Shown here one piece after another: positions 5,049 through 48,120 of a stretch of 52,544 nt of DNA. A program made the translations under genes and the position numbers. The DNA is from an uncultured virus (IMG/VR IMGVR_UViG_3300031087_000513) (Duplodnaviria > Heunggongvirae > Uroviricota > Caudoviricetes): IMG/VR virus record IMGVR_UViG_3300031087_000513, one strand, 5' to 3'. The stretch's first letter is position 1; every line of letters begins with the position of its first letter. The notes below the pieces were generated by a model. The model was not told the DNA's origin. It saw only the letters and a list, made by a program, of their open reading frames with translations, and ran no database searches.

Positions 5049-5097
5049 TGAATAAGTAAGAGCCATGACTTTGGTAGTCATGGCTCTTACTTATTCA
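5049..5097. terminator. bidirectional terminator, 22-bp perfect stem
   Basis: TGAATAAGTAAGAGCCATGACT-5nt-AGTCATGGCTCTTACTTATTCA between convergent genes. Confidence 0.85.
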
Positions 5098-5735
5098 AGG
5101 GACTGGAATGTGTTGAGTGCGAAGTCATTTCTGCGCCGGAACGAATCATCAGTTCTGACGTGATTTTCCCGCACCCACTTCGCAACATGGGTCTGGAAGT
5201 CATCGTAGTGGAAGCTCCCAGCGTCACGGATAACAAATCCTTCGGAAGTATCCTCATCGTGGTTCTTCTCCCATGCGGCAGTGGCTTCGTTGAAGTCAGT
5301 ACCACGGTAGAGAAGAGGAACGGTGTGAAGGTTGAGCAGTTCAGCCCATTCCGTCATCTCGTCCCAGCTCAGAAGACGGTCATCCTCCCACACTGCGAAC
5401 AGCATGAACGGAGAAGGGAGGTCATCATAATCTACTGAACGACGACCCTGCAAGGACTCACCAGAGAGACGGATGTTCTCAGGAAGGTCCCAACGGATGC
5501 GAGTCCAGATACGACGAGCATAGGCATCCCACGGGTGGTTTGTTCCATCAACGCTTCTTGCAAAAGCACGATTGCGCGTTAAATTAAAGTTTGACCCGTC
5601 CAATTTTTCTGTCGAAATAAGTTCAATTCCCGACTGAAGATACTCCAAGGTTTCAGGAGCAACACGCTTGTCATCTGCGCTCAAAGTCTTTGAGGTAGGC
5701 AGGTGGAACGTTCGCGGATACTTTCGGATACTCAT
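5091..5735 (-). CDS. RNA ligase family protein
   Basis: KYPRTFHLP, TEKLDGSN (motif I), EGFVIR (IV), AKWVR (V). Confidence 0.9.
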   Translation of the reverse strand: MSIRKYPRTFHLPTSKTLSADDKRVAPETLEYLQSGIELISTEKLDGSNFNLTRNRAFARSVDGTNHPWDAYARRIWTRIRWDLPENIRLSGESLQGRRSVDYDDLPSPFMLFAVWEDDRLLSWDEMTEWAELLNLHTVPLLYRGTDFNEATAAWEKNHDEDTSEGFVIRDAGSFHYDDFQTHVAKWVRENHVRTDDSFRRRNDFALNTFQSLE

Positions 5736-8033: not shown

Positions 8034-9020
8034 ATGTGTTATCCAAAACCTGGTCCCCGTTGTTCAGCTCATGCTGCTGAACTCTTACAAAAAGCCAAAA
8101 TCCGTAGACGCGCTGCGTCAGGGTTTGACTTTGAGGCTCGCCAAGCTGTTGACGATGCGCAGTTAGAGTATGATGCAACTCCTGCCGGTATACGTGAACT
8201 TGAACGTCGTATTGGTCAAGATGTGAACAGTTCCAGCAGTGACGGAACATATGAACTTCGTTTGCAGTTAGGTCGTGCAAAACGTGAAGAGCGGCTTGCT
8301 GCTGTGAAGATGAAAGATCAAGGAGATGTTCTCCACGAAGGACCATCCCAGGAAGCATCTTACCCAGCTTCTATGCAGGCTTTCACTACAAAGACAGAGG
8401 AATATCCTTCTGAAAGTTTAGAGCAAACTGGTCCTGAAATCACGGCTATGGTGCAGGATTCCACGCATTGGGTTCGTAAACTCAACACTGATGAGATTGA
8501 AGCTGCTTCCTGGTACACTTCTAACGGTTCCAGCCATGTCAATAATTATCTGTTAGGGCATGACCAAGAACAGTATGGGCAGAAGATTGACAAGAAGCAA
8601 GCAGCTGAGGCGGTAGCTCACTTAGATTCTGCATTAGAGAAAGCGGAGCGGAAGACTCCGGTGAAGCTGTACCGCGGCATCTCTCATGACATTTTAGAAC
8701 GTGAAGGTTTCCAGTATGAGGAAGAAGACAAGTATATTGATGCGAAACTTCCTGTTGGCTCCACGTTTGAATCACCTGTTTTCCAGTCTTCCACTCTTGA
8801 CTTCAAACGTGGGCGTGGCTTTGCCACAAGTCAGGTAATGTTGGAGATTCTGGCGAAGAAGGCAGCTCCTGTGTCAAACATCAGTGCATGGGGTGTCAGC
8901 GAGTCTGAGTACATTCTGCCTCGAAACCAAAAATATCGCGTCGTTGGCATCCGTGAGCATTCAACTACTCATGGTTCATTCACAAGTGTCACGAAAATCG
9001 TTCAGGTTGAGCAAATCTAA
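8034..9020 (+). CDS. VIP2/Alt-type (R-S-E) ADP-ribosyltransferase with N-terminal Cys-Cys-His tag
   Basis: YT..G...VN.YL, LYRG, FQSSTLD, ESEYILPRN motifs. Confidence 0.88.
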   Translation: MCYPKPGPRCSAHAAELLQKAKIRRRAASGFDFEARQAVDDAQLEYDATPAGIRELERRIGQDVNSSSSDGTYELRLQLGRAKREERLAAVKMKDQGDVLHEGPSQEASYPASMQAFTTKTEEYPSESLEQTGPEITAMVQDSTHWVRKLNTDEIEAASWYTSNGSSHVNNYLLGHDQEQYGQKIDKKQAAEAVAHLDSALEKAERKTPVKLYRGISHDILEREGFQYEEEDKYIDAKLPVGSTFESPVFQSSTLDFKRGRGFATSQVMLEILAKKAAPVSNISAWGVSESEYILPRNQKYRVVGIREHSTTHGSFTSVTKIVQVEQI

Positions 9021-13193: not shown

Positions 13194-14231
13194 TTATGCC
13201 TGGCGTTTATGCCAGTCGATTTTTGTTGGAATTTGGTTCCGGCCTAACTGAATTTTTTCAGATTCTAAATCCTGCAACACTAATGCTATGTCTTCTGGGG
13301 TAATAACTGCATGGCCATAACTGTCATGAGCTCCACGCATTCCTCTTCGCCAGTCAATGATAGCGTGCTGCTTCTGACCAGCATCACGCTTATTCGTTGC
13401 GATACGTGTCAGGATAGTGAAATGCTCGGACACTCCACCCACAATCCAAGGCTGTCCATCTCGCTTGAATTTTAGTTTGTCACCAACTTCCAATTCAATT
13501 CGAGGAGTTGCAGGTGGGGTGTTGTAACGAGTGTAAATGATATCATCACTATTAGCCTCATCTACAGAAGGCAAGCTGCGAAGACGACCTAAGAGCATTT
13601 GTAAGAACATGTTCTTCTCAGGTAGTGAAGACAGTACCCACATCCAAGAGGAAAGCAGAATCCCATCAACAGAGAAAGACTGTGCGTTCTTCGCAGAAGC
13701 GGCATCCTTTCTTAGCTGTTCTCGGATGTGATTGACAAACTCGATAGGAGCGGCTCTCTCAGTTCTGAGCTTCTCTTTGTACGGAGCTGCTGATTTGACT
13801 GTCCACAGGAATTTCTTATCCAATCGTTCCAACTCAGCAGCCAAGTCGTGCTTGTCAAATGAAATCGTGTTTGTAGTACCCCATTCAGCAATAAACTCAG
13901 CAATATAATGGTGGTAGCAGAAGTAGTTACCCTGGTCAACAAGTTTTCTATACTCAGCGCCTACTTCATGAAGAAGAGCGAGTGTTCTATCATCTACATC
14001 ATCAGAGGACGTAACAAGTGCGTATACTGCTGCGACCCAAGGTTTTTGGAACGCCTGATGCATCCAAGGCTCTTCATCATACTGGTCCAAGGCTCCATAA
14101 CCAGCAAGAAAAGCTTGCCAAGGTTTCCGCATCGCTAAGGTATCCAAATGGCGAGCGGCCACAGAATACAGTTCACCTGTGAGGGCCATGCGTGCACGGA
14201 TATCTTGTTTACGAGAACGTTCATTTGTCAT
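13194..14231 (-). CDS. hypothetical protein with N-terminal RAR-x3-TGE-x-Y domain
   Basis: MTNERSRKQDIRARMALTGELYSVAARHL; same N-terminal pattern as 47598..48035. Confidence 0.75.
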   Translation of the reverse strand: MTNERSRKQDIRARMALTGELYSVAARHLDTLAMRKPWQAFLAGYGALDQYDEEPWMHQAFQKPWVAAVYALVTSSDDVDDRTLALLHEVGAEYRKLVDQGNYFCYHHYIAEFIAEWGTTNTISFDKHDLAAELERLDKKFLWTVKSAAPYKEKLRTERAAPIEFVNHIREQLRKDAASAKNAQSFSVDGILLSSWMWVLSSLPEKNMFLQMLLGRLRSLPSVDEANSDDIIYTRYNTPPATPRIELEVGDKLKFKRDGQPWIVGGVSEHFTILTRIATNKRDAGQKQHAIIDWRRGMRGAHDSYGHAVITPEDIALVLQDLESEKIQLGRNQIPTKIDWHKRQA

Positions 14232-14380
14232 GATTAATCCATTCTTCGGTCAACCTACGCTCAACCGAAATGGTTTTCATGGTTGATGAACAGCTCACAG
14301 GATTTGAAAAACCTTGCTCTCAGCGTTGGAGCTGCGTAGGAACTAACCAACTTGAGACAGGCATCTGTGAAATGCCTACA
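14232..14380 (-). ncRNA. candidate structured cis-regulatory 5' leader RNA (copy A)
   Basis: CCTACGC/GCGTAGG closing stem, inner TCAACC/GGTTGA hairpin, colinear similarity to 47440..47597. Confidence 0.55.
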
Positions 14381-14436
14381 AGGAGATTCTACCATAGACC
14401 TTTTATTCTTACCAAGAAAATGCTATACTGGATGTT

Positions 14437-15045
14437 ATGACTATGACGAATCGTATTGCTATTCATGAGCCAGTTGACGTTCTCGAGTTCCATAAATTTG
14501 CCACTGAGCTTGTCACTCCCGAAGCTTTCAATGGTGAACCCATCATGACCATCAACGAGTCTAGTATCTGGAATGAAATGGAGCAGGGCTTAGATTCCCT
14601 ACTGTGGACAACTTTCACTGATAACCCTGTCCTTAATCCGGAAGAGTACAATCCTGCTCCTGACTTGGTGTACGCTCAACTTCATATTGACACGCCATAT
14701 GACTGTGAAGTTCGGGGTATGTCATGTGGAGCTTGGCAGGCTTACCTTATCAGTGAGATTGCCAACAAGTATCTTATCCCAAACGGATTCCGTTTCTCTT
14801 GGTATCACGAGTCAGCACATGTTTGGAACCGAGGAGCAGAGGACTTGGGTGCTTTGATTGAATCCGGACATGCAGCAACAAGCTGGTTCCAAAATGTTGT
14901 CAACCCTGTTCTTCCGCAGATAATGGCGGAAGTTACGCAGGAAATTCCAGAGCCGAAGGAAATGACTTCCGCAGAGCGTTTCATCCTGCGACGTAAGCAG
15001 TGGGAAGAAACCAGCCGTAGAGGACGACTCTGGTCTTCCTTCTAA
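14437..15045 (+). CDS. hypothetical protein
   Basis: Leaderless after TGCTATACT. Confidence 0.75.
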   Translation: MTMTNRIAIHEPVDVLEFHKFATELVTPEAFNGEPIMTINESSIWNEMEQGLDSLLWTTFTDNPVLNPEEYNPAPDLVYAQLHIDTPYDCEVRGMSCGAWQAYLISEIANKYLIPNGFRFSWYHESAHVWNRGAEDLGALIESGHAATSWFQNVVNPVLPQIMAEVTQEIPEPKEMTSAERFILRRKQWEETSRRGRLWSSF

Positions 15046-16064: not shown

Positions 16065-16532
16065 TTAGACGAGCTTGTAGGTGTGCTGGAAGGCATCATA
16101 CTCAATGATGTAGCGGTCATCCGTCACATCAGTTTGTTCAGCACTGTCAACAGTGGTTGCAATGAAGCAATCCGCTGCACCATGCTGGTCTTCACCCCAC
16201 GGAGCAGTGATGGTAATAGGCTTTCCCGTAGGATTCTGAATCGCACGGATGAGACCATATGCAGTCCACTTACCGTTCTCCATTGTGTAACGGGCAAGGA
16301 ACTTCGCTGCGGGGAGGACGTACTGCTCACCGTCAGGGTTCGTCACGATGAAATCACCTGGCTGAGCAGTGTTCACCGTTTCCACGAAGCCATCCTTCAT
16401 AACAGTAGAGACAACTCGCTCCTCAGTCACCTGCTCAGCGTCAACAGTACCAAACTTCGTGAACAACGGGGCATTCTGCAAGGCTTCCGTAAACTCAGCA
16501 GTCTGCAGGTCAAGGCGGAGGGAATCGGTCAT
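16065..16532 (-). CDS. PGDYG-like domain protein
   Basis: AQPGDFIVTNPDGEQYV..F..Y; APWG..GD repeat. Confidence 0.65.
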   Translation of the reverse strand: MTDSLRLDLQTAEFTEALQNAPLFTKFGTVDAEQVTEERVVSTVMKDGFVETVNTAQPGDFIVTNPDGEQYVLPAAKFLARYTMENGKWTAYGLIRAIQNPTGKPITITAPWGEDQHGAADCFIATTVDSAEQTDVTDDRYIIEYDAFQHTYKLV

Positions 16533-16548
16533 AATCTTTTCACAACTT

Positions 16549-17163
16549 TCATAGAATTTTGTCAGTACGAAGCTGGCCCAACCAGGCAATGATAACAGAT
16601 TCGCTCACCGGTGTAAAGTCGTTCGAGTCAACACCAATGTGATACATCCTCCGACTATTGTCATCCCAGTTCTCACGCTGGTGAGTATGCCCATGCAGCA
16701 GCGGCAAACCAGTGTCAGCAGGATGGTGTTTCTCGTGACGGATAGGCTTCTTCTGCTTCCCATAGGAGTTCTTCAAATAAGGGAAATGGCTGAGAAGGAC
16801 TTCCTGACCATCAATCTCAACAGAAGTTGTCTCAGGAAGAATCGTAAATCCAGCATCTTCATATGTCTTACGATGCTTCTCAATATAGCTTTTCGAGTTA
16901 TCGCTGAACAGTTTGTCATGGTTGCCAGGGACAAAGAACTTGTTTCCAGTCATTCCCTGATAGACCCGAATAGAATCCTCCAGGGTTCCCATAGCAATAT
17001 CGCCAAGGAAGTATACGTCGTCATCATTGCCAACAACCGCGTTGTGGTTACCGATGAGGGTTGCATGCATATGTCCAAGAGACTTGAAAGGACGACCATC
17101 CCCAAGTCTTAGAATATTCTCATGACCTATATGGCCATCAGAGGTGAAAAATTTCATAATCAT
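16549..17163 (-). CDS. calcineurin-like metallophosphoesterase
   Basis: SD.H.GH, LGD, GNHD, SHFP, HGHTH, GVD. Confidence 0.92.
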   Translation of the reverse strand: MIMKFFTSDGHIGHENILRLGDGRPFKSLGHMHATLIGNHNAVVGNDDDVYFLGDIAMGTLEDSIRVYQGMTGNKFFVPGNHDKLFSDNSKSYIEKHRKTYEDAGFTILPETTSVEIDGQEVLLSHFPYLKNSYGKQKKPIRHEKHHPADTGLPLLHGHTHQRENWDDNSRRMYHIGVDSNDFTPVSESVIIAWLGQLRTDKIL

Positions 17164-17699
17164 GCAGCTTTCTGATTGACTCTACTCAGGAACCCGTCAA
17201 TCTTGTCCAACTCAGCAACAGTCAGACCGTGATGGCTTTTGGGCGTGATGAACAGACTGTCTTCTTGAGTGCTTTTCTTCACGTACTCACCCCAATGCTC
17301 ATGAGCATTGTCATCCACCCAAACGAATGGACGAGCATGTGCGTCCTGGTCGGCAAGGATAGCTTCTGCTTTCCACTGCGTCCAGTCACGCTTACCAACC
17401 TGAGCTGTATGCAGGTTCGCTGGAAGAACACGGCCGTTATCCAACCCGCCCAAATATTCAGCGAGGCGAAGAACAGTGTTGTTTTCGTTCCAGGTAGTCA
17501 ACCATACAAGCTCAGCATTGTACTCATGACGGAACGCTTCAATAGTCTTCACCACAGTCGGAGAGAACACAATGAGGTTCTCTGGACGGAAGTTGATGCT
17601 GTTCTCAACTTTGATGATGAACTGTTCAACTGATTCATGGAGAGGCTTCTTCGCGTTGAAGACTCCATCAAAGTCAAGGTACAGCGTTGCATCATACAT
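17160..17699 (-). CDS. HAD-family phosphatase (Swiss-army-knife RNA-repair type)
   Basis: LYLDFDGVFN, WLTTW, WK, FVWVDD, GLT. Confidence 0.85.
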   Translation of the reverse strand: MYDATLYLDFDGVFNAKKPLHESVEQFIIKVENSINFRPENLIVFSPTVVKTIEAFRHEYNAELVWLTTWNENNTVLRLAEYLGGLDNGRVLPANLHTAQVGKRDWTQWKAEAILADQDAHARPFVWVDDNAHEHWGEYVKKSTQEDSLFITPKSHHGLTVAELDKIDGFLSRVNQKAA

Positions 17700-17765
17700 G
17701 GTGGTTCAATCTTTCTGAGTCGTTTTGTACTAACATCTTACCACAGAAAGAACTGAACTCGCTAC

Positions 17766-18281
17766 TCAGAACAAGAAGTTTGCTGGGTCTTCTTGAACCT
17801 CAGGCTCTGCAACTTTCGGATACGTGATGGTTCTCTTCTCAGGGTCAATGATGACAATAGGAACATCTTTGCGTTTCGCGTAGCGGACACAGTTACCTGT
17901 TCCACCTTTGGTTCCATCCCAGACAGCCACGACAACAGTTCCATGGTCAACCATGTATTCGTTGCGTTTCTGATAAATCCATGGTCCAACATAATTCACA
18001 GAAGGGTCAACATTGACAACCTCTGCTGCGTTCTCCATCGCCCAGTCATACAATGCTTTATCCTGGTAGCGGGGTGCATGCGCAGCCCATGGGCGTGCAG
18101 CGACGAATGGAATGTTCAGTTCATAAGAAACTTTGGCTGAAAGTAGGTCAATACCTGCTGCCATACCTTGGATGAGCTTTTCAGGAGATAACGTTTGCAG
18201 TACTTCCGTGAGAGCTGATTTCACCCAGTCAGGGTCAGCAATTTTCTCTGGTCGGTGACCTGTGATAGCTACAATCGTCAT
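17766..18281 (-). CDS. YspA-like SLOG family protein
   Basis: ITGHRP, GMA.G.D, RN.YMVD, VWDG..GGT..CV.YA. Confidence 0.88.
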   Translation of the reverse strand: MTIVAITGHRPEKIADPDWVKSALTEVLQTLSPEKLIQGMAAGIDLLSAKVSYELNIPFVAARPWAAHAPRYQDKALYDWAMENAAEVVNVDPSVNYVGPWIYQKRNEYMVDHGTVVVAVWDGTKGGTGNCVRYAKRKDVPIVIIDPEKRTITYPKVAEPEVQEDPANFLF

Positions 18282-20513: not shown

Positions 20514-21371
20514 TCAGAAGTTCACGCTGTAATCAGGGAGGTCATCTTCATCATCGTCTTCATCCCAGTCATCCTCGGATTCTTCCTGAGCTTTCTTGAT
20601 TTCCTGAGCGGAGAGTTCATTCAAAAGCTGTGAAGCGTTCCAGTTCCCGAATTGTTCGCCGCAGAACGTCGGCTGATAGACGCGGTTGACAGCAGTCAGA
20701 ACGCTAGTAAGGTCCTGCAAATCAGTGACTGGTTCTTTCATGCCATCAACAGCGAACACTGTGAGCTTCTCTAAGCCAAGAGGGAAAGCGGTGCTTTTCC
20801 GCAAGAAGTCGACAACAGGCTGGTCATGCATAAACCAGTATTTCGGTCGGCCATCTTCCTCTTCATGGTAATAGGTCAGGAAGTCTTCCCAATGCTGGCT
20901 CACATCCCAGTATTCATTTGCATATAGCCAAGGGTCTTTGCGGACAAAAGTCTGCATCTGCTCAAAAATTTCAGGGATGAAAAAGAAGTTATGAACATAT
21001 TCCAGAGTTTTGGCCACTGGATTATCAGGGTACTTCTCTTGTATTTCCTTCGCTTGCCAGTTGGTCCCTAACGCTTTAAGAACATCATCAATGGGCATGC
21101 CATAATGATTCTCAATGAGTTCCGTAATAGGTCCGCGTTCAATATTCTCAATACGTCCATAGTCATCATACGTTCCATAGATAGCAGGGAAGATAGGGCA
21201 GAAATTGTCAGTGGGATATACATACTGGCTGCCTCGGAATCTGTTCGGTTCTTTATCCTGAACATATTGAGCGCCAAGAGTTCGTTTGAGCGTTACTAAC
21301 ACCAAACCAACACGTTTTCCTTCTCCGATTGGCAAGCCACTGATACCACATGATACGTTGAAGCTACCCAT
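20514..21371 (-). CDS. MGSFNV-CGIS family protein, tandem paralog 3
   Basis: Shares MGSFNV.CGIS, P.FP.I..TY..YG...NIE, PT..GEQ.G.W and acidic tail with the next two. Confidence 0.85.
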   Translation of the reverse strand: MGSFNVSCGISGLPIGEGKRVGLVLVTLKRTLGAQYVQDKEPNRFRGSQYVYPTDNFCPIFPAIYGTYDDYGRIENIERGPITELIENHYGMPIDDVLKALGTNWQAKEIQEKYPDNPVAKTLEYVHNFFFIPEIFEQMQTFVRKDPWLYANEYWDVSQHWEDFLTYYHEEEDGRPKYWFMHDQPVVDFLRKSTAFPLGLEKLTVFAVDGMKEPVTDLQDLTSVLTAVNRVYQPTFCGEQFGNWNASQLLNELSAQEIKKAQEESEDDWDEDDDEDDLPDYSVNF

Positions 21372-21457
21372 AATATTTTTCTCCTCTAACCTTGCGATTC
21401 ATTATCTTCGTCAAATTTTTACGTTGTTCTTTGCTGAGTGAAGCGTTCTATGTATGT

Positions 21458-22285
21458 CTACTCGTCATCATCTTCCCAGTCGCTGGTAAACCGTTCTTTG
21501 GCTTTCTCAATCTCAGGAACGATGAGCTTATTGAGCAGTTCTGTTACCTGCCAGTTTCCATACTGCTCACCTGAAAAAGTTGGCTGGTAGACACGATTTA
21601 CAGAGGAAAGAACCTGGCCTAATTTCTGCAAATCCGCAACTGGTTCTTTCATCCCGTCATTTGCAAAGATTTCAAGCTTCTCTAATCCAAGAGGAAAAGA
21701 AGTATGCTCTTCAAAGAACTTCATAACAGGCTGGTTCTGAGCGAACCAGTATTTCGGGCGACCATTTTCTTCCTCATGATAGTGCGCGTAGAAATCGTCC
21801 CAATGCGTACTGATATCTCTGCGTTCGTTTCTATACAGATACGAATCATTTTTGCGAATAAACTGAGAAATTTCAGTAAAAATCTCTGGAATGAAGAAGA
21901 AGTTATGAGTATCCGCTAATGACTTGACTGCCTCATTATCACGATGCCCCTCCTGTGTCTCTTTAGACTCCCAATCATGACCCACCCCTTTGAGTACATC
22001 CTCAACAGAAACGCCATAGTAATTTTCAATCGCTTTGGTAGCAGGACCATGTTCGATGTTTTCAATGCCTCCGTATTCATTGTAGGTGCCATAAATAGGA
22101 GGGAAAGTGGGACTATAATTGTCTGTTGTAGCAGTGTACTGACGGCCTCGGAAACAATTGTCTGCAGAGTCACCAGGGTGCATCTTTGTCAAATCACGAT
22201 TAATTCGGATGAGGACTAAACCAACACGTTTTCCTTCATCAATTGGTACCCCGCTGATACCGCAGGACACGTTGAAACTACCCAT
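21458..22285 (-). CDS. MGSFNV-CGIS family protein, tandem paralog 2
   Basis: Clear full-length similarity to neighbours. Confidence 0.85.
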   Translation of the reverse strand: MGSFNVSCGISGVPIDEGKRVGLVLIRINRDLTKMHPGDSADNCFRGRQYTATTDNYSPTFPPIYGTYNEYGGIENIEHGPATKAIENYYGVSVEDVLKGVGHDWESKETQEGHRDNEAVKSLADTHNFFFIPEIFTEISQFIRKNDSYLYRNERRDISTHWDDFYAHYHEEENGRPKYWFAQNQPVMKFFEEHTSFPLGLEKLEIFANDGMKEPVADLQKLGQVLSSVNRVYQPTFSGEQYGNWQVTELLNKLIVPEIEKAKERFTSDWEDDDE

Positions 22286-22305
22286 AGTATTCTTCTCCTT
22301 TAGCC

Positions 22306-23124
22306 TTATAGCTCATCATCTTCATCAAAGTCCTCATCCCATTCTTCACGCTGGGCAACGACTTTCTGAGTGAGTTCGCTCAACTTCTGCGTTACTTCCC
22401 AATCACCATGCTGCTCGCCGCAGTAAGTTGGATGGAAAATATGATTCGTCATTTCCATGACTTTGACCAAGTAGAACCAATCAAGAAGAGGATGTTTCAT
22501 GCCTTCTACACCCAGGTGGATAATCTCTTTCCCACCATACGGATAATTCGTTTCATTTTCTACGAATTCATTGATAGGATTAGGGTGAGTATGCTGCGGA
22601 TTCGCAAAACCATACTCGTCTACAGCCAGGCTTCCTGTAAACACTTCCCAGCTTTTCTCATCACCTAAGCGAATACTGTCAAATACATCAGAACGCTTGT
22701 GAATGAAGTCTTTCAGCTCAGTAAATACCTCAGGGCGATACACAAACAAGCTTTTCTCTTCAAGAGAAGCCAGTTGAGGTGCTGAGTCAATCCGTTTCTC
22801 ACGGATTTCTTTTGCTTCCCAATCATCGCCAACAGCGTTAATGATGTCTGCAATGGGAGCATTGAAATGTTTCTCTATTACCGCATTGACAGGGCTGGGT
22901 TCAATATTTGTGAAGTTCCCATAATCGTCATACGTTGCATGAATAGCAGGGAAGAGTGGTCGGTAGAGAGTGTTGGAATGAACCAAAGAGCTTCCATAGA
23001 ATACGCCAGGGTGTTCATCGTAATAATCAAGCATACGGTTACGCCCAATAATCATGATTGCAACTTTTTCACCAGGTGACACTGGCGTATTGCTGATCCC
23101 ACAGCCTACGTTGAAACTACCCAT
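22306..23124 (-). CDS. MGSFNV-CGIS family protein, tandem paralog 1
   Basis: Clear similarity; GAGGAG SD and TGGTAGAAT promoter upstream. Confidence 0.85.
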   Translation of the reverse strand: MGSFNVGCGISNTPVSPGEKVAIMIIGRNRMLDYYDEHPGVFYGSSLVHSNTLYRPLFPAIHATYDDYGNFTNIEPSPVNAVIEKHFNAPIADIINAVGDDWEAKEIREKRIDSAPQLASLEEKSLFVYRPEVFTELKDFIHKRSDVFDSIRLGDEKSWEVFTGSLAVDEYGFANPQHTHPNPINEFVENETNYPYGGKEIIHLGVEGMKHPLLDWFYLVKVMEMTNHIFHPTYCGEQHGDWEVTQKLSELTQKVVAQREEWDEDFDEDDEL

Positions 23125-28771: not shown

Positions 28772-29665
28772 TTAATCGATGAGACCTTTTGCAAAAGCGA
28801 ACATATTTGACTTGGATGGAACTTTTACCCAAAGTGCGCGAGCTCGTTCTAACTGCACAGAGTCAGGGTCAGAACCATCGCCATGGCCAATATGATGCTT
28901 GTCGCAGTAAGAGCAGGAATATGGTGTCATTTCTTCCTCACCTGACACTGTTTCTTTAGCCTTAGACTGTGCAATATCCACTGAGTCATAACGCTTTTTG
29001 CGACCACACTTCCAGAACTCCAGCATCAAGCTATCTGGTACATCTCCAACCGGTACACGCAACTCAGGAATCTCACGTGGCTTGAGAAGGTAAGGAACAT
29101 GTCCTTGTTCTTTCGCTTTCTTGATTCTACGTTCATCTCTTGCATCTTTTGCATCTCTTGATTGAGGATCACGCTGATATTGTCTTTGTAGCGCTTGCAT
29201 ATGTTCTTTGTCAGCATTAAATTTTGGACGAAGTGTGGTACCGATGAACTTACCAATGCGGCTACGCAGCTCAGAAGATTCTTCCTGAGAGATAGTGCCG
29301 TCTTCAACAGCACGTGACACTGAATTCTGTAATTTGTTTACAGCTACTTTATGTGGAGAATTCTGATTAGCATACGCATGATAAGCTTCATGCTCTTCAC
29401 AGTACCGAGCTGACTGTCCAGGGATCAAAGCTTTCTTACCAAGTTCCGAAATATGTTTGAAGCTACTACTGCTGTGATTGCATATTTCCTGAGTAAAACC
29501 TTCATCCAAAGCTGCTACTCGTTCATCAAAGTTGGGAACCAATTCTTTTGTATTTTCAACAACTAACATGCTGTTGACGCGCCAACGCGCACCATGGATA
29601 CGACATTCAGGACCTGAATGACAGAACTTACCATTCCCAACTGGAATTTTTGTACCTTTACTCAT
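28772..29665 (-). CDS. Cys/His-rich hypothetical protein, tandem paralog B
   Basis: N-term KFCHSGPECRIHG; C-term CGRK.RY...Y.C.YC..HHIGH zinc finger. Confidence 0.8.
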   Translation of the reverse strand: MSKGTKIPVGNGKFCHSGPECRIHGARWRVNSMLVVENTKELVPNFDERVAALDEGFTQEICNHSSSSFKHISELGKKALIPGQSARYCEEHEAYHAYANQNSPHKVAVNKLQNSVSRAVEDGTISQEESSELRSRIGKFIGTTLRPKFNADKEHMQALQRQYQRDPQSRDAKDARDERRIKKAKEQGHVPYLLKPREIPELRVPVGDVPDSLMLEFWKCGRKKRYDSVDIAQSKAKETVSGEEEMTPYSCSYCDKHHIGHGDGSDPDSVQLERARALWVKVPSKSNMFAFAKGLID

Positions 29666-29670
29666 ATCTC

Positions 29671-29681
29671 ATTCCTAACAA
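29671..29681 (-). promoter_or_regulatory. TYGTTAGRWAT motif
   Basis: TTGTTAGGAAT, 5 nt before ATG 29665. Confidence 0.65.
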
Positions 29682-29704
29682 ACTCCTCTTTTGATTGAGA
29701 GTGA

Positions 29705-30610
29705 TTAGTTGATGAGACCTTTTGCAAAAGCAAACGAGTTAGATTTCTCAGGATACTTATTCCAGTGTTCTCGAGCGCGTTCAAATTGTGAACCTAATGG
29801 GTCTCTTCCGAAACCATGTCCAATGTGCTGTTGTGAACAGTATTCGCATGCGTAAACACTCATTGTTTCCCGTTCACCTAACTGGTCAATCATTGCATCA
29901 CCAGCGGAAACAGTTTCAAACTTACGTTTTCTACCGCATCTCCAATATTCCAGCATGTGCGCATCACTCACAGTGGACTGATCCACTAAAAGCGTTGGTT
30001 GTTCTCGTTCAGCGGCGGTTCTTATTGGCTGGTGTTTGAGGCGCTCTTCAATACGATGTCTTTCACGTTCAAGGAGAGCAGCTTCTGCTTCTTCCGAAGC
30101 TGAAAACTCAGTTTGTAGCGTACGAAGATTTTTCCGATCCTGTTTGTATTCATTTTTATAGTCATAGTTATGGCTCTCAGAACCTAAACGACTACGAAGA
30201 GTCTTCGCATCCTCAACAGATAACACTCCAGCCTCAACAGAATCAGCTATTTTCGCAAATAACAAACCAGTAAGTTTATTGGTAGCATCAAACGCTGTTG
30301 TAGGGTACACGTGCTGCCCATCATGCTCAGGACAGCTCCGAGCAGCTTGGCCTGGCATCAAAGCAGATTCACCTAATACCGCAAGACTTTTTACAGCGGG
30401 ATGTGAATGAACAGCTTTGTTGAAATGTTCAGCAGTAATCTGATTCATTTCATCAAGAGTAACCGACAGCTCTGAGAATGTAGCTACATCACCCGCAGAT
30501 ACCTTTGTCGCCTTTTCCACTTCTTTCCACAGCTCGCCATGCATACGGCAGGTAGGGCCGGAGTAGCAGAATTTACCGTTACCGACTGGAATCTTTGTAT
30601 GTGAACTCAT
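29705..30610 (-). CDS. Cys/His-rich hypothetical protein, tandem paralog A
   Basis: TKIPVGNGKFC.SGP.CR.HG and FAFAKGLI shared with paralog B. Confidence 0.8.
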   Translation of the reverse strand: MSSHTKIPVGNGKFCYSGPTCRMHGELWKEVEKATKVSAGDVATFSELSVTLDEMNQITAEHFNKAVHSHPAVKSLAVLGESALMPGQAARSCPEHDGQHVYPTTAFDATNKLTGLLFAKIADSVEAGVLSVEDAKTLRSRLGSESHNYDYKNEYKQDRKNLRTLQTEFSASEEAEAALLERERHRIEERLKHQPIRTAAEREQPTLLVDQSTVSDAHMLEYWRCGRKRKFETVSAGDAMIDQLGERETMSVYACEYCSQQHIGHGFGRDPLGSQFERAREHWNKYPEKSNSFAFAKGLIN

Positions 30611-30639: not shown

Positions 30640-31908
30640 TTAGAAAAGCGCGTTCTTATCCAAGTAGGTTTTACCAGATGAAAGATACTGTGTCGGAACC
30701 TGGAAACGCTCATGCAGTAATGTAATCAACTCTTCCGCTGAATCAACATATACAAGTTCTGCATCCTCCAACGTCAAGCTCATCAAATGCTGAGTGATTT
30801 CCTCTTGCTTTGCTCGGTCACGGTTGAAGAAGTCAGAAGGAATCTCTTTCCAGTTCTTATACCCTACAACCACAGGCATATGCGGTGTGAGTAAATCAGC
30901 ATGGGTGAGTGAGAACACGTCAATTCCACCGTTTGCGCGGATAGCGTAATCAAGTAGAGGCAAGTCAAGGTAACCTCGTCGCCAACCGCCCTGATAACGT
31001 CCGAACTGGTTGTGCACTTCAGGGAAACGGTCAATGTTCTCCTGAGTACTCTGAATTTCAGAAGGGAACGGACCAAACCCATGACGGGTCAAATAGGTAC
31101 GAAGAGCACCAATAACTGTTCCTCGAGGTTTACCCGCCTCTTCAAGCAGAAGCTGTGCATGCTCAGAAGTCACAGATGACCAAGTAGTATGTGGATGCAG
31201 TCCATAGGATTCGTCTAAGAGAATACCCTGGGACCCTTCAAAAATGGTGAACCCTTCCTGAATACGCTGAGTAATGCGAGCATCAGTAACAATATTGAGG
31301 AAGCCTTCATCCGCCATGACCTGATACTCTGCGAACAGAACATCGATGTCACCATCCCACTCAGCGTCAACTTCGTTTTCCACATACTCACGGAGGAAGT
31401 GAAGCTTCTCTTTCAGTTCAGAGAGGGTCTCAGTAAGCAAGTCGCCCATAACAGGAGCCTGCTGTGGATGACGAATATGGAACAGACGGGTTTCACCAAT
31501 ACCCTCACCGCAGGAGCCATGTGCAGCGGCTCCACGAGCTTCCTCTCGCTTACGGTTTAGCCAAACATGTAAGGGTGTGATAAGAAGAGCGTTCTCGCTA
31601 ATGAGCAAATCAGGGAAAGGGTTCCATCCTGTTTTCTCAAACAGCATATCCCCTTCGGTGACCAGGTTGAAAGGATTCACCAGCATGAAACGGGAAAGAG
31701 TTGTCGGAACTTCCTGCAAGGACGCAGAACCGAACTGAGCGAACGTGTGATGAATACCAGAAGGTGAGACTACATTGTGCGCAGTCTGTGGCCCACCACC
31801 AAACCTGACCACTGAAACAGGACGTTCTTGGGAAGCCAGGTAATCCACACTGGTTCCCTTGCCCTCATCGCCAAATAGCGTTCCAACGACGATTTTATCA
31901 TTTGTCAT
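30640..31908 (-). CDS. purA: adenylosuccinate synthetase-like protein (divergent PurA)
   Basis: FGDEGKG, RF.GG.Q.AH.V, HGSCG.GIG, FEGSQG.LLD, TTWS, RTY.TRHG.GP. Confidence 0.85.
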   Translation of the reverse strand: MTNDKIVVGTLFGDEGKGTSVDYLASQERPVSVVRFGGGPQTAHNVVSPSGIHHTFAQFGSASLQEVPTTLSRFMLVNPFNLVTEGDMLFEKTGWNPFPDLLISENALLITPLHVWLNRKREEARGAAAHGSCGEGIGETRLFHIRHPQQAPVMGDLLTETLSELKEKLHFLREYVENEVDAEWDGDIDVLFAEYQVMADEGFLNIVTDARITQRIQEGFTIFEGSQGILLDESYGLHPHTTWSSVTSEHAQLLLEEAGKPRGTVIGALRTYLTRHGFGPFPSEIQSTQENIDRFPEVHNQFGRYQGGWRRGYLDLPLLDYAIRANGGIDVFSLTHADLLTPHMPVVVGYKNWKEIPSDFFNRDRAKQEEITQHLMSLTLEDAELVYVDSAEELITLLHERFQVPTQYLSSGKTYLDKNALF

Positions 31909-34354: not shown

Positions 34355-35335
34355 TCAGTTATTTTGAGTGATGGTAATATCATCAACTCGGAAGTAGTTG
34401 CTTCCAGATGCTCCTGTTGTCGTTGCAAAGTCAATGTATGATGAGGTACTTGCTGATGCTGTGAAAGTAACAGAAAGCTTCTTCCAAGTATTAGAGTCTC
34501 CAGTTTCAGTAGATGTTACTCCACCAGCTGACAAGGTTGGTTTGATAAAGCCAGCTGTTGAAACACGAACCCAAGCTTCAACAGTATAATTTTTACCTGT
34601 TGCAAACGTGATATTCGGAGCAACCTTTGAAGTATCAAACCGAACGCTTCCCATAGAAGAAGCGGATGTACCATCTACCTGGATGAAATACGCCCCTGAG
34701 TGCGCAATTCCTGTGAGGTTTTTAGCTCCAATGGTGATGCTTCCAGAATTTGTTTGCAATACAGACCAGCCAGCTGCAGAACCGTTCTCGAAACTATACG
34801 TCCCCAGCACAACAGGAGTTATTGGAGCAGGAGGTGTAGTCTCACTACCATCTGTCGTTTTACCAAGACAAGTAGTTTCATCCTGAACAGCAATTTTCTG
34901 CACACCTTTTGAAGTTGACTTGAAAACTTTACCTGAGCCAGATTTTACATATGCTACATAGTCTGAACCATCTGAGGAAGCAACAACGCAGTAATTATCA
35001 TTAGATGTCAGCAGATCATTCTTTTCCAACCCAGCACTTCCAGTGAATGAAGAATTAAGCACAACCTGATTCGCATCAGCAGTGTCAATTGGATTCGTTA
35101 TTGCATTTTTTAGACCTGAATCTTTGTCAGTGGATAAACCGCGGTAAGCACTTTGAGCTGACGCGATATTGTCCAGTTGTTGGCGGGCTGCATTATCCTG
35201 AGACCAAGGGATAACAGCGAAGACAGTTGCTGCAATTACGCCACCGATGAGACCAATAACGATAATACCAACCATAATAGAAGCCAGGTCAATAGCAGCA
35301 CGGGAAGACTTTAGGGTATTATGAAGATGTAGCAT
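34355..35335 (-). CDS. pilin-like protein with C-terminal CBM4/9-like carbohydrate-binding domain (copy 1)
   Basis: KSSRAA-IDLASIMVGIIVIGLIGGVIAATVFAVIPW prepilin-like helix; FE.G...W, AHSG, Y.V.AWVR, WKKLS.TFTA, VDDI.I. Confidence 0.75.
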   Translation of the reverse strand: MLHLHNTLKSSRAAIDLASIMVGIIVIGLIGGVIAATVFAVIPWSQDNAARQQLDNIASAQSAYRGLSTDKDSGLKNAITNPIDTADANQVVLNSSFTGSAGLEKNDLLTSNDNYCVVASSDGSDYVAYVKSGSGKVFKSTSKGVQKIAVQDETTCLGKTTDGSETTPPAPITPVVLGTYSFENGSAAGWSVLQTNSGSITIGAKNLTGIAHSGAYFIQVDGTSASSMGSVRFDTSKVAPNITFATGKNYTVEAWVRVSTAGFIKPTLSAGGVTSTETGDSNTWKKLSVTFTASASTSSYIDFATTTGASGSNYFRVDDITITQNN

Positions 35336-38608: not shown

Positions 38609-39664
38609 TTAGGAAATACGTTCTACTTTGACATCATCAACGTAATACTCCGCTGTTCCAGGATTGTTCTTCTGCATCTGAAAAGCTAAATCCTGGCTAC
38701 TGCTTGTTGTTGCAGTCATCTCAAATGAATACTGCTTCCAAGCATTCAAGGTCGGGGTTCTATCTCCAGTTACTGTGGAGTAGTAAGAACCGAAAGCATA
38801 AATGTCTGGCCATTTTCCTTGCTTCACATAAATCCAGGCACTAACACGATATTTTGTACCAGCCACAATATTTGGAACTGTGCCCGAAGTTGTACGAATA
38901 GTGGCAGTATCAGTACCGTTGACGTATAAGCTTTTTGCGCCGTGTCCAGCTGCAGGAGCTGTTGCAATATATTGGGTGCCGTATGTTTGAGGGTTACGGA
39001 AGATGCTTGTACTGCCATCTTCAAAATCGTAAGAAGCGACAGTAGTATATACAGGTACAGGGGTCGTAGGGGTTGTACCAGCATCAGTCCCTGTAGTAGG
39101 AGCGGTACCGATGCTACCCGTTCCATCATCAGCTTTAGGATTCACAGTACCAGCTAGGGAAGGAGTGCTTGCAGTGGTTGCAGTAAGACAAGGAGCTTCG
39201 ATGCCCGCATAGATACTCGGTTGTGTCTTACCGCTGGTGATGTAGAACCATTTGCCTGAACCGCTTTTAGAGTAAGCATGGTAATCCTTACCGTCAGTAG
39301 TAGCGATAACACAGTAGTTACCAGCAGCATTCAAGGTAAGAAGATTATTTACAGCTAACCCAGCGCTACCAGTGAAAGTGCTATTCAATACTACCTGATT
39401 TGGGTCTGACTGACTAATGGGAGAACTTGAAGCATCTTGTAAGCTTGCGTCTTTACTCGTGGACAACCCACGGTAAGCAGATTCAGCAGAAGCAATAGGG
39501 TCAAGCTGCTGTTTCGCTGCATTGTCCTGTGCCCAAGGAATAACAGCGAACACGGTCGCAGCGATAACACCGCCAATAAGGCCAATCACGATAATACCAA
39601 CCATGATGGATGCAAGGTCAATCGCAGCACGCGACGACTTTAGGGCATTATTAAGTTTGAGCAT
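38609..39664 (-). CDS. pilin-like protein with CBM4/9-like domain (copy 3)
   Basis: Same architecture as copies 1 and 2. Confidence 0.75.
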   Translation of the reverse strand: MLKLNNALKSSRAAIDLASIMVGIIVIGLIGGVIAATVFAVIPWAQDNAAKQQLDPIASAESAYRGLSTSKDASLQDASSSPISQSDPNQVVLNSTFTGSAGLAVNNLLTLNAAGNYCVIATTDGKDYHAYSKSGSGKWFYITSGKTQPSIYAGIEAPCLTATTASTPSLAGTVNPKADDGTGSIGTAPTTGTDAGTTPTTPVPVYTTVASYDFEDGSTSIFRNPQTYGTQYIATAPAAGHGAKSLYVNGTDTATIRTTSGTVPNIVAGTKYRVSAWIYVKQGKWPDIYAFGSYYSTVTGDRTPTLNAWKQYSFEMTATTSSSQDLAFQMQKNNPGTAEYYVDDVKVERIS

Positions 39665-47010: not shown

Positions 47011-47349
47011 TTAGAAAGCGAGATATCCAATGAACGTAATCATGCCTAATCCTGCCAGGATGAAGAAAGTCCAAGCGAACGTCGCTACGTATGGGTAGTA
47101 TTTTCTTTGGTCCTCAGGTACTTCGCTGACGGATTTCAAACTGAGTGCATCACGTTCTAATGATACGAAGTCAACCTGCGGGTTTGCTGGCTCTCCTTCA
47201 TGATTCGCCCAGCCTTCGGTCACTGTGGCTCCTGAATCTTGTGCCTGATATTTGTCAATCACATTATACTGGGAAGCGTCAGATGTGTTGATAGCATCAC
47301 GGATTGCTGAAGCTGGAATAATGTTGGAGGATTCGTCAGAGATACTCAA
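47011..47349 (-). CDS. C-terminally anchored membrane protein
   Basis: TTG start, C-terminal TM. Confidence 0.55.
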   Translation of the reverse strand: MSISDESSNIIPASAIRDAINTSDASQYNVIDKYQAQDSGATVTEGWANHEGEPANPQVDFVSLERDALSLKSVSEVPEDQRKYYPYVATFAWTFFILAGLGMITFIGYLAF

Positions 47350-47439
47350 GAGGTTGTCTTTCTGTGAAGGTTCTTCTTATGACTATCAGCGGATGCATTT
47401 CATTTTTGCAGGTTATTTCCTCATGCATGTTACAGTTAT

Positions 47440-47597
47440 GTTCTGGCGGTAACAGCAGCCCATCTTTGAAGTGTCCTAAGCTCCCACGTAGCTGATGCTG
47501 ATGAGAAGGAAGGTTCCTTGTGAATCCTGTTTATTTCGTTTACTCATAGATTATGTGAGCAGGCGTGGGATGTTCGCAGGATTGAATGAGATACATC
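47440..47597 (+). ncRNA. candidate structured cis-regulatory 5' leader RNA (copy B)
   Basis: TCCCACG/CGTGGGA closing stem, AATCCTG/CAGGATT pairing, colinear with 14232..14380. Confidence 0.55.
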
Positions 47598-48035
47598 ATG
47601 ACGAAAAATAACTCGTTGAAGAAGACTGTTCGCGCTCGTGTCGCTGAGACAGGTGAATCCTACATTGTTGCGTTGCAGCATGTTGCTGCTGGGGAATCCA
47701 CTCCGAAACTAAACGCCATGGAATTCGGTGATAATGGTGGTTACTGGTATGTTGAAGGCACTTCGGATAAGCAACTCGCTCTTGCGTTTTTGAAGAAATG
47801 GCTAATTGATACTTATTGGTATGAAGATGGTTTTAATAATGACTGGTTGATGGAAGATTTGCAGCTCCTTGAAGGTGATGCGATTGAGTTCAGAGCAAGT
47901 GATGACTTTTACTTCCGTGACCGAGATGCGTCAGATGAAGGGTATGGAGATATGTTCCTTGAATCCAAATCTGAGTGCCCTGAGAAATACACAGGTCAGG
48001 ACATCATGAGCGGTGTCACTATTAGCATCTACTGA
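47598..48035 (+). CDS. hypothetical protein with N-terminal RAR-x3-TGE-x-Y domain
   Basis: MTKNNSLKKTVRARVAETGESYIVALQHV. Confidence 0.75.
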   Translation: MTKNNSLKKTVRARVAETGESYIVALQHVAAGESTPKLNAMEFGDNGGYWYVEGTSDKQLALAFLKKWLIDTYWYEDGFNNDWLMEDLQLLEGDAIEFRASDDFYFRDRDASDEGYGDMFLESKSECPEKYTGQDIMSGVTISIY

Positions 48036-48120
48036 GCCAGTTACGAAGGTTGCAACAGGTGCTGTTCTCTGCTATGATGCTGTGTACGGCAAGTTATTCA
48101 TCAAACATAGTTAGGTTATC

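Follow-up and report, generated by a model that had tools for sequence, protein, structure and literature searches.

The 52,544-base stretch of viral DNA considered here (the window) raises the question of why two distant genes should share an upstream leader and the first residues of their proteins. Leader A occupied about 14391/14381-14232 on the minus strand and ended at the start codon of gene A (13194-14231, minus; P0001, 345 aa), and leader B occupied 47440-47597 on the plus strand and ended at the start codon of gene B (47598-48035, plus; P0002, 145 aa). The blocks that the original prediction had described as colinear between both leaders were all present: AAGT, CCTACGCAGCT / CCCACGTAGCT (consensus CCYACGYAGCT), GCTGA..GAG..AAGGTT (that is, GCTGA(T)GAG followed by AAGGTT), AATCCTGT, GCGTAGG / GCGTGGG (GCGTRGG) and ATCATGAC. 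The proteins likewise shared a head and then diverged, as had been claimed, since 15 out of 29 N-terminal residues were common (BLASTP E 2e-6) and nothing beyond. This head, called the module below, comprised residues 1-30 and was encoded by 14142-14231 in gene A and 47598-47687 in gene B. Exact matches to CCYACGYAGCT numbered two in the window, in leaders A and B only, and five matches were found when one mismatch was tolerated (1.7 expected). A six-frame scan of the window for the module motif R.R..TGE.Y retrieved genes A and B only, and no third leader copy was detected in the window with covariance model R2, introduced below (next best match 8.2 bits, E 0.8).

Annotation of the window genes indicated a content resembling that of a very large phage. 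It encoded an RNA ligase, an HD phosphohydrolase, an Alt-like ADP-ribosyltransferase and a PurZ-type adenylosuccinate synthetase (phrog_1211, E 2e-60), together with HNH and homing endonucleases and RCC1-repeat proteins. Proteins identical or near-identical to those of the window were carried by metagenome contigs of 788,683 to 883,042 bases, and the window's own genome was a giant, phage-like one of about 0.88 Mb. Its DNA was present in many phyllosphere, leaf-litter and plant-associated sequencing runs. Phage GenBank records displayed no DNA match to gene A or gene B plus leader, and no relatives of either whole protein (P0001, P0002) were found in IMG/VR.

The leader was about 150 nt long and formed a doubly pseudoknotted fold, whose elements succeeded each other from 5' to 3' as hairpin P0, strand E1, hairpin Pb, a purine segment, helix P3, the K1 strand, a variable hairpin region, hairpin Pc and the ribosome-binding site. 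Strand E1 (UCUCN) paired with NGAGA to form helix Pa, which enclosed Pb. The purine segment read GAGGA.AAGGG in the family and TGAGA..AAGGTT in the window, and P3 was a short helix of AGG/GGGG with CCU/CCUC.

All features of leader A were read on the minus strand. Hairpin P0 (14359-14377; AGGCAT / loop TTCACAG / ATGCCT) covaried family-wide, and was followed by the 5' strand of Pa (14353-14357, TCTCA), whose partner TGAGA lay at 14318-14322 and which was likewise supported by covariation. Hairpin Pb (14330-14344), also covarying, consisted of AGTT, the 7-nt loop CCTACGC (14334-14340) and AGCT. The conserved purine-rich segment TGAGA..AAGGTT (14310-14322; family consensus GAGGA.AAGGG) combined the 3' strand of Pa with the 5' strand of P3. 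Downstream, AATCCTGTGAG (14294-14304) offered CCT to AGG in P3, and CTGTGAG to the P0 loop TTCACAG in the 7-bp contact K1. Hairpin Pc (14244-14270) was made of TTTCGGTTGA, the 7-nt loop GCGTAGG (14254-14260) and TTGACCGAAG, with a stem of 10 bp (UUUCGGUUGA[GCGUAGG]UUGACCGAAG) and a loop kissing that of Pb (contact K2). The putative ribosome-binding region (14232-14243), read directly from the sequence, displayed TGGA and 6 nt before the ATG at 14229-14231.

Leader B displayed the same succession on the plus strand. Its P0 (47445-47460; GGCGG / TAACAG / CAGCC) included one G.A mismatch, and the stem was perfect in L010, a diverged B copy. Pb (47479-47493) consisted of AGCT, loop CCCACGT (47483-47489) and AGCT, and the interval 47502-47531 contained TGAGA (3' strand of Pa), AAGGTT (5' strand of P3), AATCCTGT (3' strand of P3) and CTGTT, which pairs with AACAG of the P0 loop (K1). 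Pc (47554-47578) was composed of TGTGAGCA, a loop with GCGTGGG (47563-47569) kissing the Pb loop, and TGTTCGCA.

Natural variation was surveyed by comparing contigs of two variant strains with window positions 47300-48100. The strains differed from the window at four and seven base positions within 47381-47440, and one had an extra T inserted at 47402. Wherever runs gave cover, 47441-47575 was free of listed differences, one run leaving ~47489-47545 uncovered. The sole change inside leader B (47576 G>A) converted a U.G pair of Pc to U-A and kept the pairing. The next differences lay within the coding sequence, beginning at 47660 for one strain and at 47738 for the other. The sharp boundary at ~47440 fits a functional unit starting at P0, and agrees with the position of a TGnTAnAnT motif upstream of P0. 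A metatranscriptome contig (X20) spanned 47695-47904 only, and two presumed-RNA runs likewise gave no cover of the leader.

The claim of a conserved structured RNA was examined through P0, Pa and Pb (18 pairs in all), in 33 diverse sequences that model R2 had aligned. Hairpins were misplaced when divergent leaders were aligned with MAFFT, and such alignments did not enter the pair counts. The 5' helices were paired in 92.6 % of cases versus 65.3 % in 500 shuffles, none of which reached the observed value, an alignment fitted to its model and containing many related sequences being the basis of these figures. Both-side changes occurred in 16 out of 18 pairs, and compensated cells amounted to 139 versus 41.5 in shuffles. 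When partner columns were slid by one to three positions, only 35-48 % paired. P0 was 97.6 % paired, with both-side changes in three of its five pairs; Pa was 99 % paired, with such changes in all three; Pb displayed them in all six. The structured RNA thus withstood this test.

K2 was addressed in a non-circular way, the loop of Pb being taken from model columns and its complement sought downstream. Seven out of seven pairs formed in 32 of the 33 sequences and at least six in all 33, the distance from complement to the 3' end of the match always being 26-40 nt; foreign loops found a 7-bp complement in 190 out of 864 trials. Eleven variants of the Pb loop were encountered (CCUACGC, CCCACGU, CCCACGC, CCCGCGC, CCCGCGU, CCCACAC, CCCAUGC, CCCCAGU, CCCCAGC, CCUCAGU and CCCGCG). 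A script requiring a stem of at least 4 bp, a 7-nt loop starting with CC and a full complement 12-50 nt before the start codon was positive in 52 out of 93 upstream regions, versus a mean of 0.3/93 in 20 shuffled sets, and the span from loop to complement was 73-91 nt in 51 of these 52 positives. Across the family, the 3' strand of K2 was located 21-35 nt before the start codon. Its place was the loop of Pc, whose stem measured 8 bp in B, 8 bp in the third paralog C, 9 bp in L018 and 7 bp in L089; leaders of the KH type displayed a larger Pc loop, with a stem 97.2 % paired. The compensatory change noticed originally between both copies (CCTACG:CGTAGG versus CCCACG:CGTGGG) was real, this pairing existing in 11 variants. 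It had been assigned to a closing stem, and here the pairing stood while its nature as a stem did not: it is a 7-bp loop-loop kissing contact between two hairpins, the own stems of which covary.

Contact K1 was assessed by comparing the P0 loop, again from model columns, with the 20 columns after P3. It reached at least 5 bp in 27 of the 33 sequences versus 27 % of 1,002 foreign combinations, through about ten different sequence pairs. These included UUCACAG:CUGUGAG in A, AACAG:CUGUU in B and UAACAG:CUGUUA in C, as well as AGCGC:GCGCU, UCCGC:GCGGA, CACGC:GCGUG, CGYCC:GGRCG and GUGAUCC:GGGUCGC, and extended to 9 bp in L024. In the DUF2087 subgroup (n=16), a variable K1 pair read U-A seven times, U.G seven times, C-G twice and C.A never, a distribution that is suggestive and alone not significant. 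Intermediates of the G.U type on the sense strand only point to an RNA and not to a duplex DNA site. The family evidence also redirected one proposed partner: AATCCTGT, formerly paired with GGATT next to the start codon, pairs with AAGG (P3) and with the P0 loop (K1). Complementarity between AATCC and GGATT was confirmed as such (5 bp in A, 7 bp in B); the pairing itself was not upheld, being absent in paralog C and not above shuffled controls.

Two covariance models were built. The seed of R1 consisted of 12 KH-type actinobacterial leaders only. It matched 47440-47597 (plus), exactly the interval originally given for copy B, with 21.8 bits (E 0.0087 in 281 kb), and with filters off leader B obtained E 0.0023. 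On copy A (14224-14381, minus) and on paralog C, matches of 8.4 bits (E 2.1) and 7.1 bits were in the right place but within noise. R2 was seeded with 19 true R1 matches and annotated for the 5' helices only, because only the 5' half of its source alignment (A12) was reliable; another alignment (A11) was discarded for containing at least 17 spurious low-score matches. The scores of R2 on leaders A (65.3 bits) and B (77.1 bits) were high by construction, near-identical copies being in the seed. Elements outside the seed were found as well, namely paralog C (42.1 bits, E 3.5e-10), L013 (26 bits, E 1e-5) and L018 (21.4 bits, E 1.8e-4); L015 was missed.

No named Rfam family had been recognised in the leader, and covariance-model searches of Rfam 15 agreed with this. 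The whole window gave no match at gathering thresholds. In E-value mode, both leaders retrieved only sn2417 (12.3 bits versus a threshold of 80) and LINC00901 (11.4 versus 55). Ten leader loci gave no match at E<=1, and 20 actinobacterial loci gave only sR44 (22.8 bits versus a threshold of 45). The structured-RNA family to which leaders A and B belong has no entry in Rfam 15. Hammerhead ribozymes are defined by a conserved CUGANGA core, GAAA and three helices around the cleavage site. Such a ribozyme was suggested by CUGAUGAG in copy B and rejected: A reads CUGAGAG and L010 reads UUAAUGAG at this place, and no Rfam hammerhead match was found in the window or leader B. A coding extension or upstream reading frame was also dismissed. 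The 16-codon extension called in P0005-P0008 is out of frame in the window, where 49 nt separate the extension ATG from the gene start, and leader alignments displayed single-base indels and stems changing by compensation, both of which speak against coding.

Further copies were sought at the DNA level. A strict pattern over three conserved blocks matched six places in metagenome contigs, including copies of A (L006, L007) and of B (L008, L009). The diverged B copy L010 resided on a 788,683-base contig. The third paralog, C (L005), was found on an 878,612-base contig that also carried copies of A and B; it displayed the same leader architecture, the module MTKDNAQKKVIRERMQQTGEVYSVARR and then a B-like cargo. 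Species genomes yielded no match to the strict pattern, and a high-GC pattern recovered only L013, L018 and L019, already known. A first, loose pattern had matched viral contigs only by chance, inside coding regions. On contigs of large phages (L013, L015, L018 and L011), the same order of elements was encountered upstream of module genes at 54-72 % GC.

The module comprised about 30 residues, was rich in K and R and displayed an invariant TGE. An AlphaFold2 run on an eight-sequence alignment of B- and C-type proteins (mean pLDDT 83.8) predicted a helix over residues 3-18, a turn at TGE and a second helix over 22-30, with a pLDDT of 73-80 in this block. The cargo of gene B was alpha/beta in the predicted structure, and Foldseek comparison of the model with the PDB gave no match at E<=0.001; no family assignment was found for the cargo of gene A. 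A profile of five modules (40 aa) was compared with 3,247 candidates and identified 24 module proteins, each at E below 1e-3. Behind the module, P0022-P0024 displayed the C-terminal ATPase domain of DnaB helicase, P0017 the first cytoplasmic domain of GspF/PilC and P0025 a GspE/PilB-like ATPase, the others being a NUDIX domain (P0026), a Cys-rich protein (P0027) and cargos of types A and B.

In viral contigs, the motif [IV]R[AE]R[MV][AQ]xTGE matched 12 stretches, from which nine loci were kept. A search of bacterial genomes (one per species) with ARMAETGE gave 252 stretches; confirmation succeeded for 87, and 80 entered the set. Actinomycetota accounted for nearly all of these 80, with an Archangium and alphaproteobacterial, Gemmatimonadaceae and Terriglobia MAGs as carriers outside this phylum; soil bacteria are among the carriers. 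A Pfam scan of 29 cargos identified five KH_2, four DUF2087, two DUF4287 (one below cut-off), one zf-UBP and one epimerase, the remainder having weak or no Pfam matches. For the module itself, Pfam returned no family for 14 modules at E<=10, a PDB profile search returned no match, Atlas clusters contained no usable match, and none of the whole-protein profile searches (Pfam, NCBIfam, PHROGs) matched in the module part. A likeness of RARMA.TG to ribosomal protein bL34 was unsupported by the Pfam and PDB profile searches and dropped. The N-terminal motif is thus very common in Actinomycetota and is without family assignment. Profile searches and Pfam scans bore out that the RNA and the small basic N-terminal module travel as one unit on unrelated cargos.

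Such mobility could in principle belong to the DNA, the shared ~270 bp serving as a recombination or mobility module for cassette shuffling and not as a functional RNA. T4-type phages use promoter-early stem-loops as shuffling DNA ends. Three copies in one genome before different cargos, cargo domains that are fragments of larger proteins and the homing endonucleases nearby in the window are in line with this explanation. It is nevertheless very improbable, given that the copies are old and diverged (15/29 residues between A and B), that the lack of any long identical tract argues against recent exchange, that the element is conserved vertically in many actinobacterial genera and that stems change via compensatory and G.U-intermediate substitutions, as expected from selection on RNA pairing and not on a DNA site.

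How tightly both parts are coupled was judged from the loci and from whole genomes. The leader had been expected before homologous genes, and this held in 64 out of the 80 bacterial module loci, where an R2 match (E<=0.05) ended at the start codon, as well as for each of the three paralog types (A, B and C) in the window's own genome. It failed in the viral high-GC loci L012, L014, L016 and L017, in which the module directly followed another ORF and no leader was present. Among the 16 R2-negative bacterial loci, two (L089 and L095) displayed the kissing motif by script, and several others had an upstream gap of ~210 nt, with room for a diverged leader. Since leaderless module genes exist, the module is not solely the partner of its own leader.

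In the reverse direction, R2 was run on five whole genomes, four of which each yielded a single strong match (E 2.8e-39 to 4.6e-14), located at the module gene. Weak genome-wide matches (E 0.01-0.8, those in the genomes searched whole at E 0.04-0.09) were regarded as noise, as each fell within a coding region and was not followed by a module. Of 151 genomes sampled evenly across the phylum, two gave a match at E<=0.001; the new one, in an unpublished genome (G006) on which this single count rests, preceded the module motif. All five significant whole-genome RNA matches (5/5) preceded a module gene. These searches, covering 161 genomes, were insensitive because at most 18-150 first-look candidates were scored per genome. 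Linkage of RNA and module was kept from phage-like DNA of 46 % GC to Actinomycetota of 75 % GC. RNA and module are thus found together in giant phage-like genomes as well as in Actinomycetota, before unrelated cargos, and the leaders likely form a new class of cis-regulatory RNA, to which a portable peptide is coupled.

The main rival to a functional coupling of this kind is a sensing leader linked to the module only by descent. The leader would be a riboswitch-like element or the sensor of a trans-acting factor (small molecule, ion, temperature, sRNA or host protein), and the module would have an unrelated job, for instance nucleic-acid binding or cargo docking; both would remain linked by adjacency, as the RNA abuts the first codons and cargos are swapped downstream of the module. 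Riboswitch regulons are usually coherent. Here, no common pathway unites KH_2, DUF2087, DUF4287, zf-UBP, epimerase, the DnaB C-terminal domain, PilB/PilC parts, NUDIX and the unassigned cargos, and because these cargos are unrelated and the module is their sole common downstream feature, a metabolite riboswitch is argued against. That all five significant genome-wide RNA matches precede a module gene, and that the linkage survives the whole range of GC contents given above, also weighs against it. The complex doubly pseudoknotted fold and the invariant unpaired purines GAGGA.AAGGG are as in ligand-binding RNAs, and the leaderless module genes suit a sensor too. In other proteins, moreover, the module stands at the usual place of DNA-binding or N-terminal domains (DUF2087, DnaB; cf. 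PMC7113386) and may have a target of its own. A sensing leader is possible, if rather doubtful.

The initiation region provided information on the level of action. By eye, TGnTAnAnT occurred 7-8 nt upstream of the 5' hairpin in all copies (A, B, B' and C). A consensus scan called a promoter for A only, and weakly: TTGGTA-18 nt-TAGAAT with TG before the -10 hexamer (14386-14415, minus), one site versus 0.5 expected. None was called for B, whose -10-like TACAGT after TGT (47431-47436, plus) was recognised by eye. No terminator-like site was found in 14150-14520 or in 47300-47680, and a transcription-attenuating leader was set aside, neither leader displaying an intrinsic terminator hairpin with a U-run. 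The structured element was conserved in adjoining the ribosome-binding site: 12 nt (A) and 19 nt (B) separated the end of Pc from the ATG, and the fold overall ended 12-35 nt before the start codon. A helix sequestering the start codon exceeded shuffles in only one of 50 distinct sequences, and pairing of the anti-SD-like P3 strand with the SD, including AATCC:GGATT, in none of the 50. A 14-bp start-region helix was predicted only in the KH-type subgroup; a start-codon helix was also visible in L018 and L082.

A further explanation sees the leader as an inherited constitutive element, protecting the mRNA 5' end or acting as a ribosome standby or enhancer platform, with neither switch nor feedback. 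Stabilisers and standby sites typically carry a 5'-terminal hairpin, such as P0, and purine tracts resembling an SD, such as GAGA and AAGG; no alternative fold had statistical support. However, two tertiary pairings covarying over very large evolutionary distances exceed the needs of a stabiliser, and the element was not found before other genes in the four genomes searched whole. A constitutive element appears unlikely on these grounds, and is less likely than a sensing leader; a module for DNA shuffling is less likely still.

The reading preferred here, to which we assign a probability of about 0.4, is that the leader is a cis-acting RNA and the module its putative RNA-binding partner, both forming together a portable expression-control cassette. 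As the fold ends 12-35 nt before the start and no terminator is present, it would act most likely on initiation of translation and not on transcription. Since downstream genes share only the module, the latter is the simplest candidate for a trans-acting partner, and the leading hypothesis is that this basic helix-turn-helix hairpin binds the leader. The module emerges from the ribosome ahead of the rest of the protein; it could then bind the leader of the mRNA that encodes it, perhaps with a preference for cis, and stabilise or remodel the fold. The bound leader would limit further initiation in a putative feedback. Operator and repressor would be contiguous within ~270 bp, so that the cassette could be recombined before any cargo; adjacency of operator and peptide would make the pair movable as one piece and explain the unrelated cargos in phages and bacteria. 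Counted against this cassette is that the link between RNA and module could reflect descent alone, the RNA abutting the first codons. The leaderless module genes also weigh against it, as do a module that matched nothing in Pfam, the PDB or Atlas clusters and start-codon or anti-SD pairings that rarely or never exceeded shuffles.

A more specific form can be advanced only tentatively. It supposes a transferable autoregulatory cassette in which the nascent N-terminus shuts off its own mRNA, preferentially in cis and regardless of the cargo, and which spread between Actinomycetota and giant phages as a dosage limiter for such proteins as helicase, pilus-ATPase and KH fragments. If true, RNA and peptide would make up a regulatory pair of a new class, usable directly as a part in synthetic biology. 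Should the broader reading of an expression-control cassette hold, a widespread class of structured RNA would be added, including in megabase-scale phage-like genomes, and an N-terminal motif common in Actinomycetota would gain an explanation. Were the module not the ligand, the RNA would still stand as a well-supported orphan regulatory element.

No paper describing the RNA, the module or their pairing was found among those listed by full-text searches, and we know of no earlier case of a cis-regulatory RNA and a putative protein partner moving as one short cassette onto unrelated genes. Comparison with known systems therefore concerns parts of the arrangement. Kissing-loop and pseudoknotted riboswitches of Rfam 15 have size, loop-loop contacts and position in the 5' UTR in common with the leader. 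Unlike in these, the kissing loops covary freely and contain no conserved ligand-contact bases, no pathway is common downstream, and no Rfam 15 match appeared even at E up to 1-10.

The N proteins of phages lambda and P22 bind the boxB hairpin through an arginine-rich N-terminal peptide. The module is, like this peptide, short, basic, helical and situated at the extreme N-terminus, and might similarly be a unit of RNA recognition. N acts in transcription antitermination and on a small hairpin, in contrast to an RNA of ~150 nt with two tertiary pairings in the peptide's own mRNA, and no sequence relation between N and the module was found in Pfam and PDB profile searches. Translational autoregulators are also known from phage T4, with gp32 (acting at a 5' pseudoknot), gp43 and RegA. 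These phage proteins repress their own or other mRNAs via structured or unstructured operators in the initiation region, as is proposed here. They are whole, dedicated proteins with one operator each, whereas the present pair of operator and peptide is reused on several genes and shared with bacteria.

The closest parallel lies in the autoregulatory leaders of ribosomal proteins, exemplified in E. coli by S15 (rpsO), L20 (infC-rpmI-rplT) and S4, which involve pseudoknots. Like leaders A and B, they combine a structured 5' leader, long-range or pseudoknot pairing and an adjoining ribosome-binding site, with feedback that is proposed in the present case. Unlike them, the putative RNA-binding part is here a 30-residue N-terminal module placed on unrelated cargos; no mimicry of rRNA is known for the leader, which matched no ribosomal-protein leader of Rfam. 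By this analogy, the logic of leaders A and B would be that of an autoregulatory leader of the ribosomal-protein type, carried by a structured RNA class that is new and well supported and whose fusion with a portable, putative peptide partner is, to our knowledge, described here for the first time.

Metagenome contigs between 788,683 and 883,042 bases long represent the phage-like genome that contains the window, a size which, to our knowledge, exceeds that of every published phage genome. Its DNA was present in many phyllosphere, leaf-litter and plant-associated sequencing runs. No tRNA genes were found in the 52,544 nt of the window. Tandem or nearby sets of paralogs, recognized by phrog and domain matches, were encountered at 20514-23124, 28772-30610, 34355-35335 and 38609-39664, all on the minus strand. 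Among the paralog sets of the window, two out of three adjacent ORFs of ~275 aa displayed an N-terminal match to phrog_5960, two ORFs of ~300 aa had phrog_14788 in common, and two proteins carried CBM_4_9 domains.

An adenylosuccinate-synthetase homolog (30640-31908, minus strand) matched the phage PurZ family phrog_1211 (E 2e-60) as well as Pfam Adenylsucc_synt (E 3e-55). This homolog hints that 2-aminoadenine may replace adenine in this phage-like genome. According to domain matches, a cluster of RNA-repair-type genes (16065-18281, 5091-5735 and 1500-2309, all on the minus strand) comprised PGDYG, Metallophos_2, a YspA/SLOG protein and the HAD domain known from 'Swiss Army Knife' RNA repair proteins. 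Outside this cluster, the window also encodes an RNA ligase and an HD protein. In a 328-aa ORF (8034-9020, plus strand), Pfam recognized an ADP-ribosyltransferase exoenzyme domain (E 1.8e-19); the ORF also weakly matched the Alt-like RNA polymerase ADP-ribosyltransferases of phages.

Leader B was found a few kb from each of two ORFs on the plus strand: a 713-aa protein (41041-43182) with six DUF4379 treble-clef zinc fingers, which matched the phage homing/HNH endonuclease families phrog_3339 and phrog_559, and a second ORF (50702-51466), an HNH endonuclease. Within leader A starts a 19-codon upstream ORF (14279-14220, minus strand), which runs out of frame over the start of gene A. A one-base difference places this upstream ORF in frame in the relatives P0005-P0008, whose proteins as delimited by gene callers are 16 residues longer. 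Paralog C, the third copy of leader and module, displayed an inverted repeat (about 1441-1473 of metagenome locus L005), perfect over about 15 bp, which overlaps both the 5' half of P0, the 5' hairpin of the leader, and the predicted -10 element. This repeat, which was not seen in copies A or B, could be an upstream terminator or operator.

In P0017 and P0022-P0025, relatives which join the module to other cargos, the module takes the place of the N-terminal part that a well-known protein usually has. The DnaB helicase was reduced to its C-terminal ATPase domain and PilC/GspF to its first cytoplasmic domain, while a further cargo was a PilB/GspE-like ATPase. These module-borne DnaB, PilC/GspF and PilB/GspE pieces look like free-standing fragments, which might compete with the host machines or modulate them.
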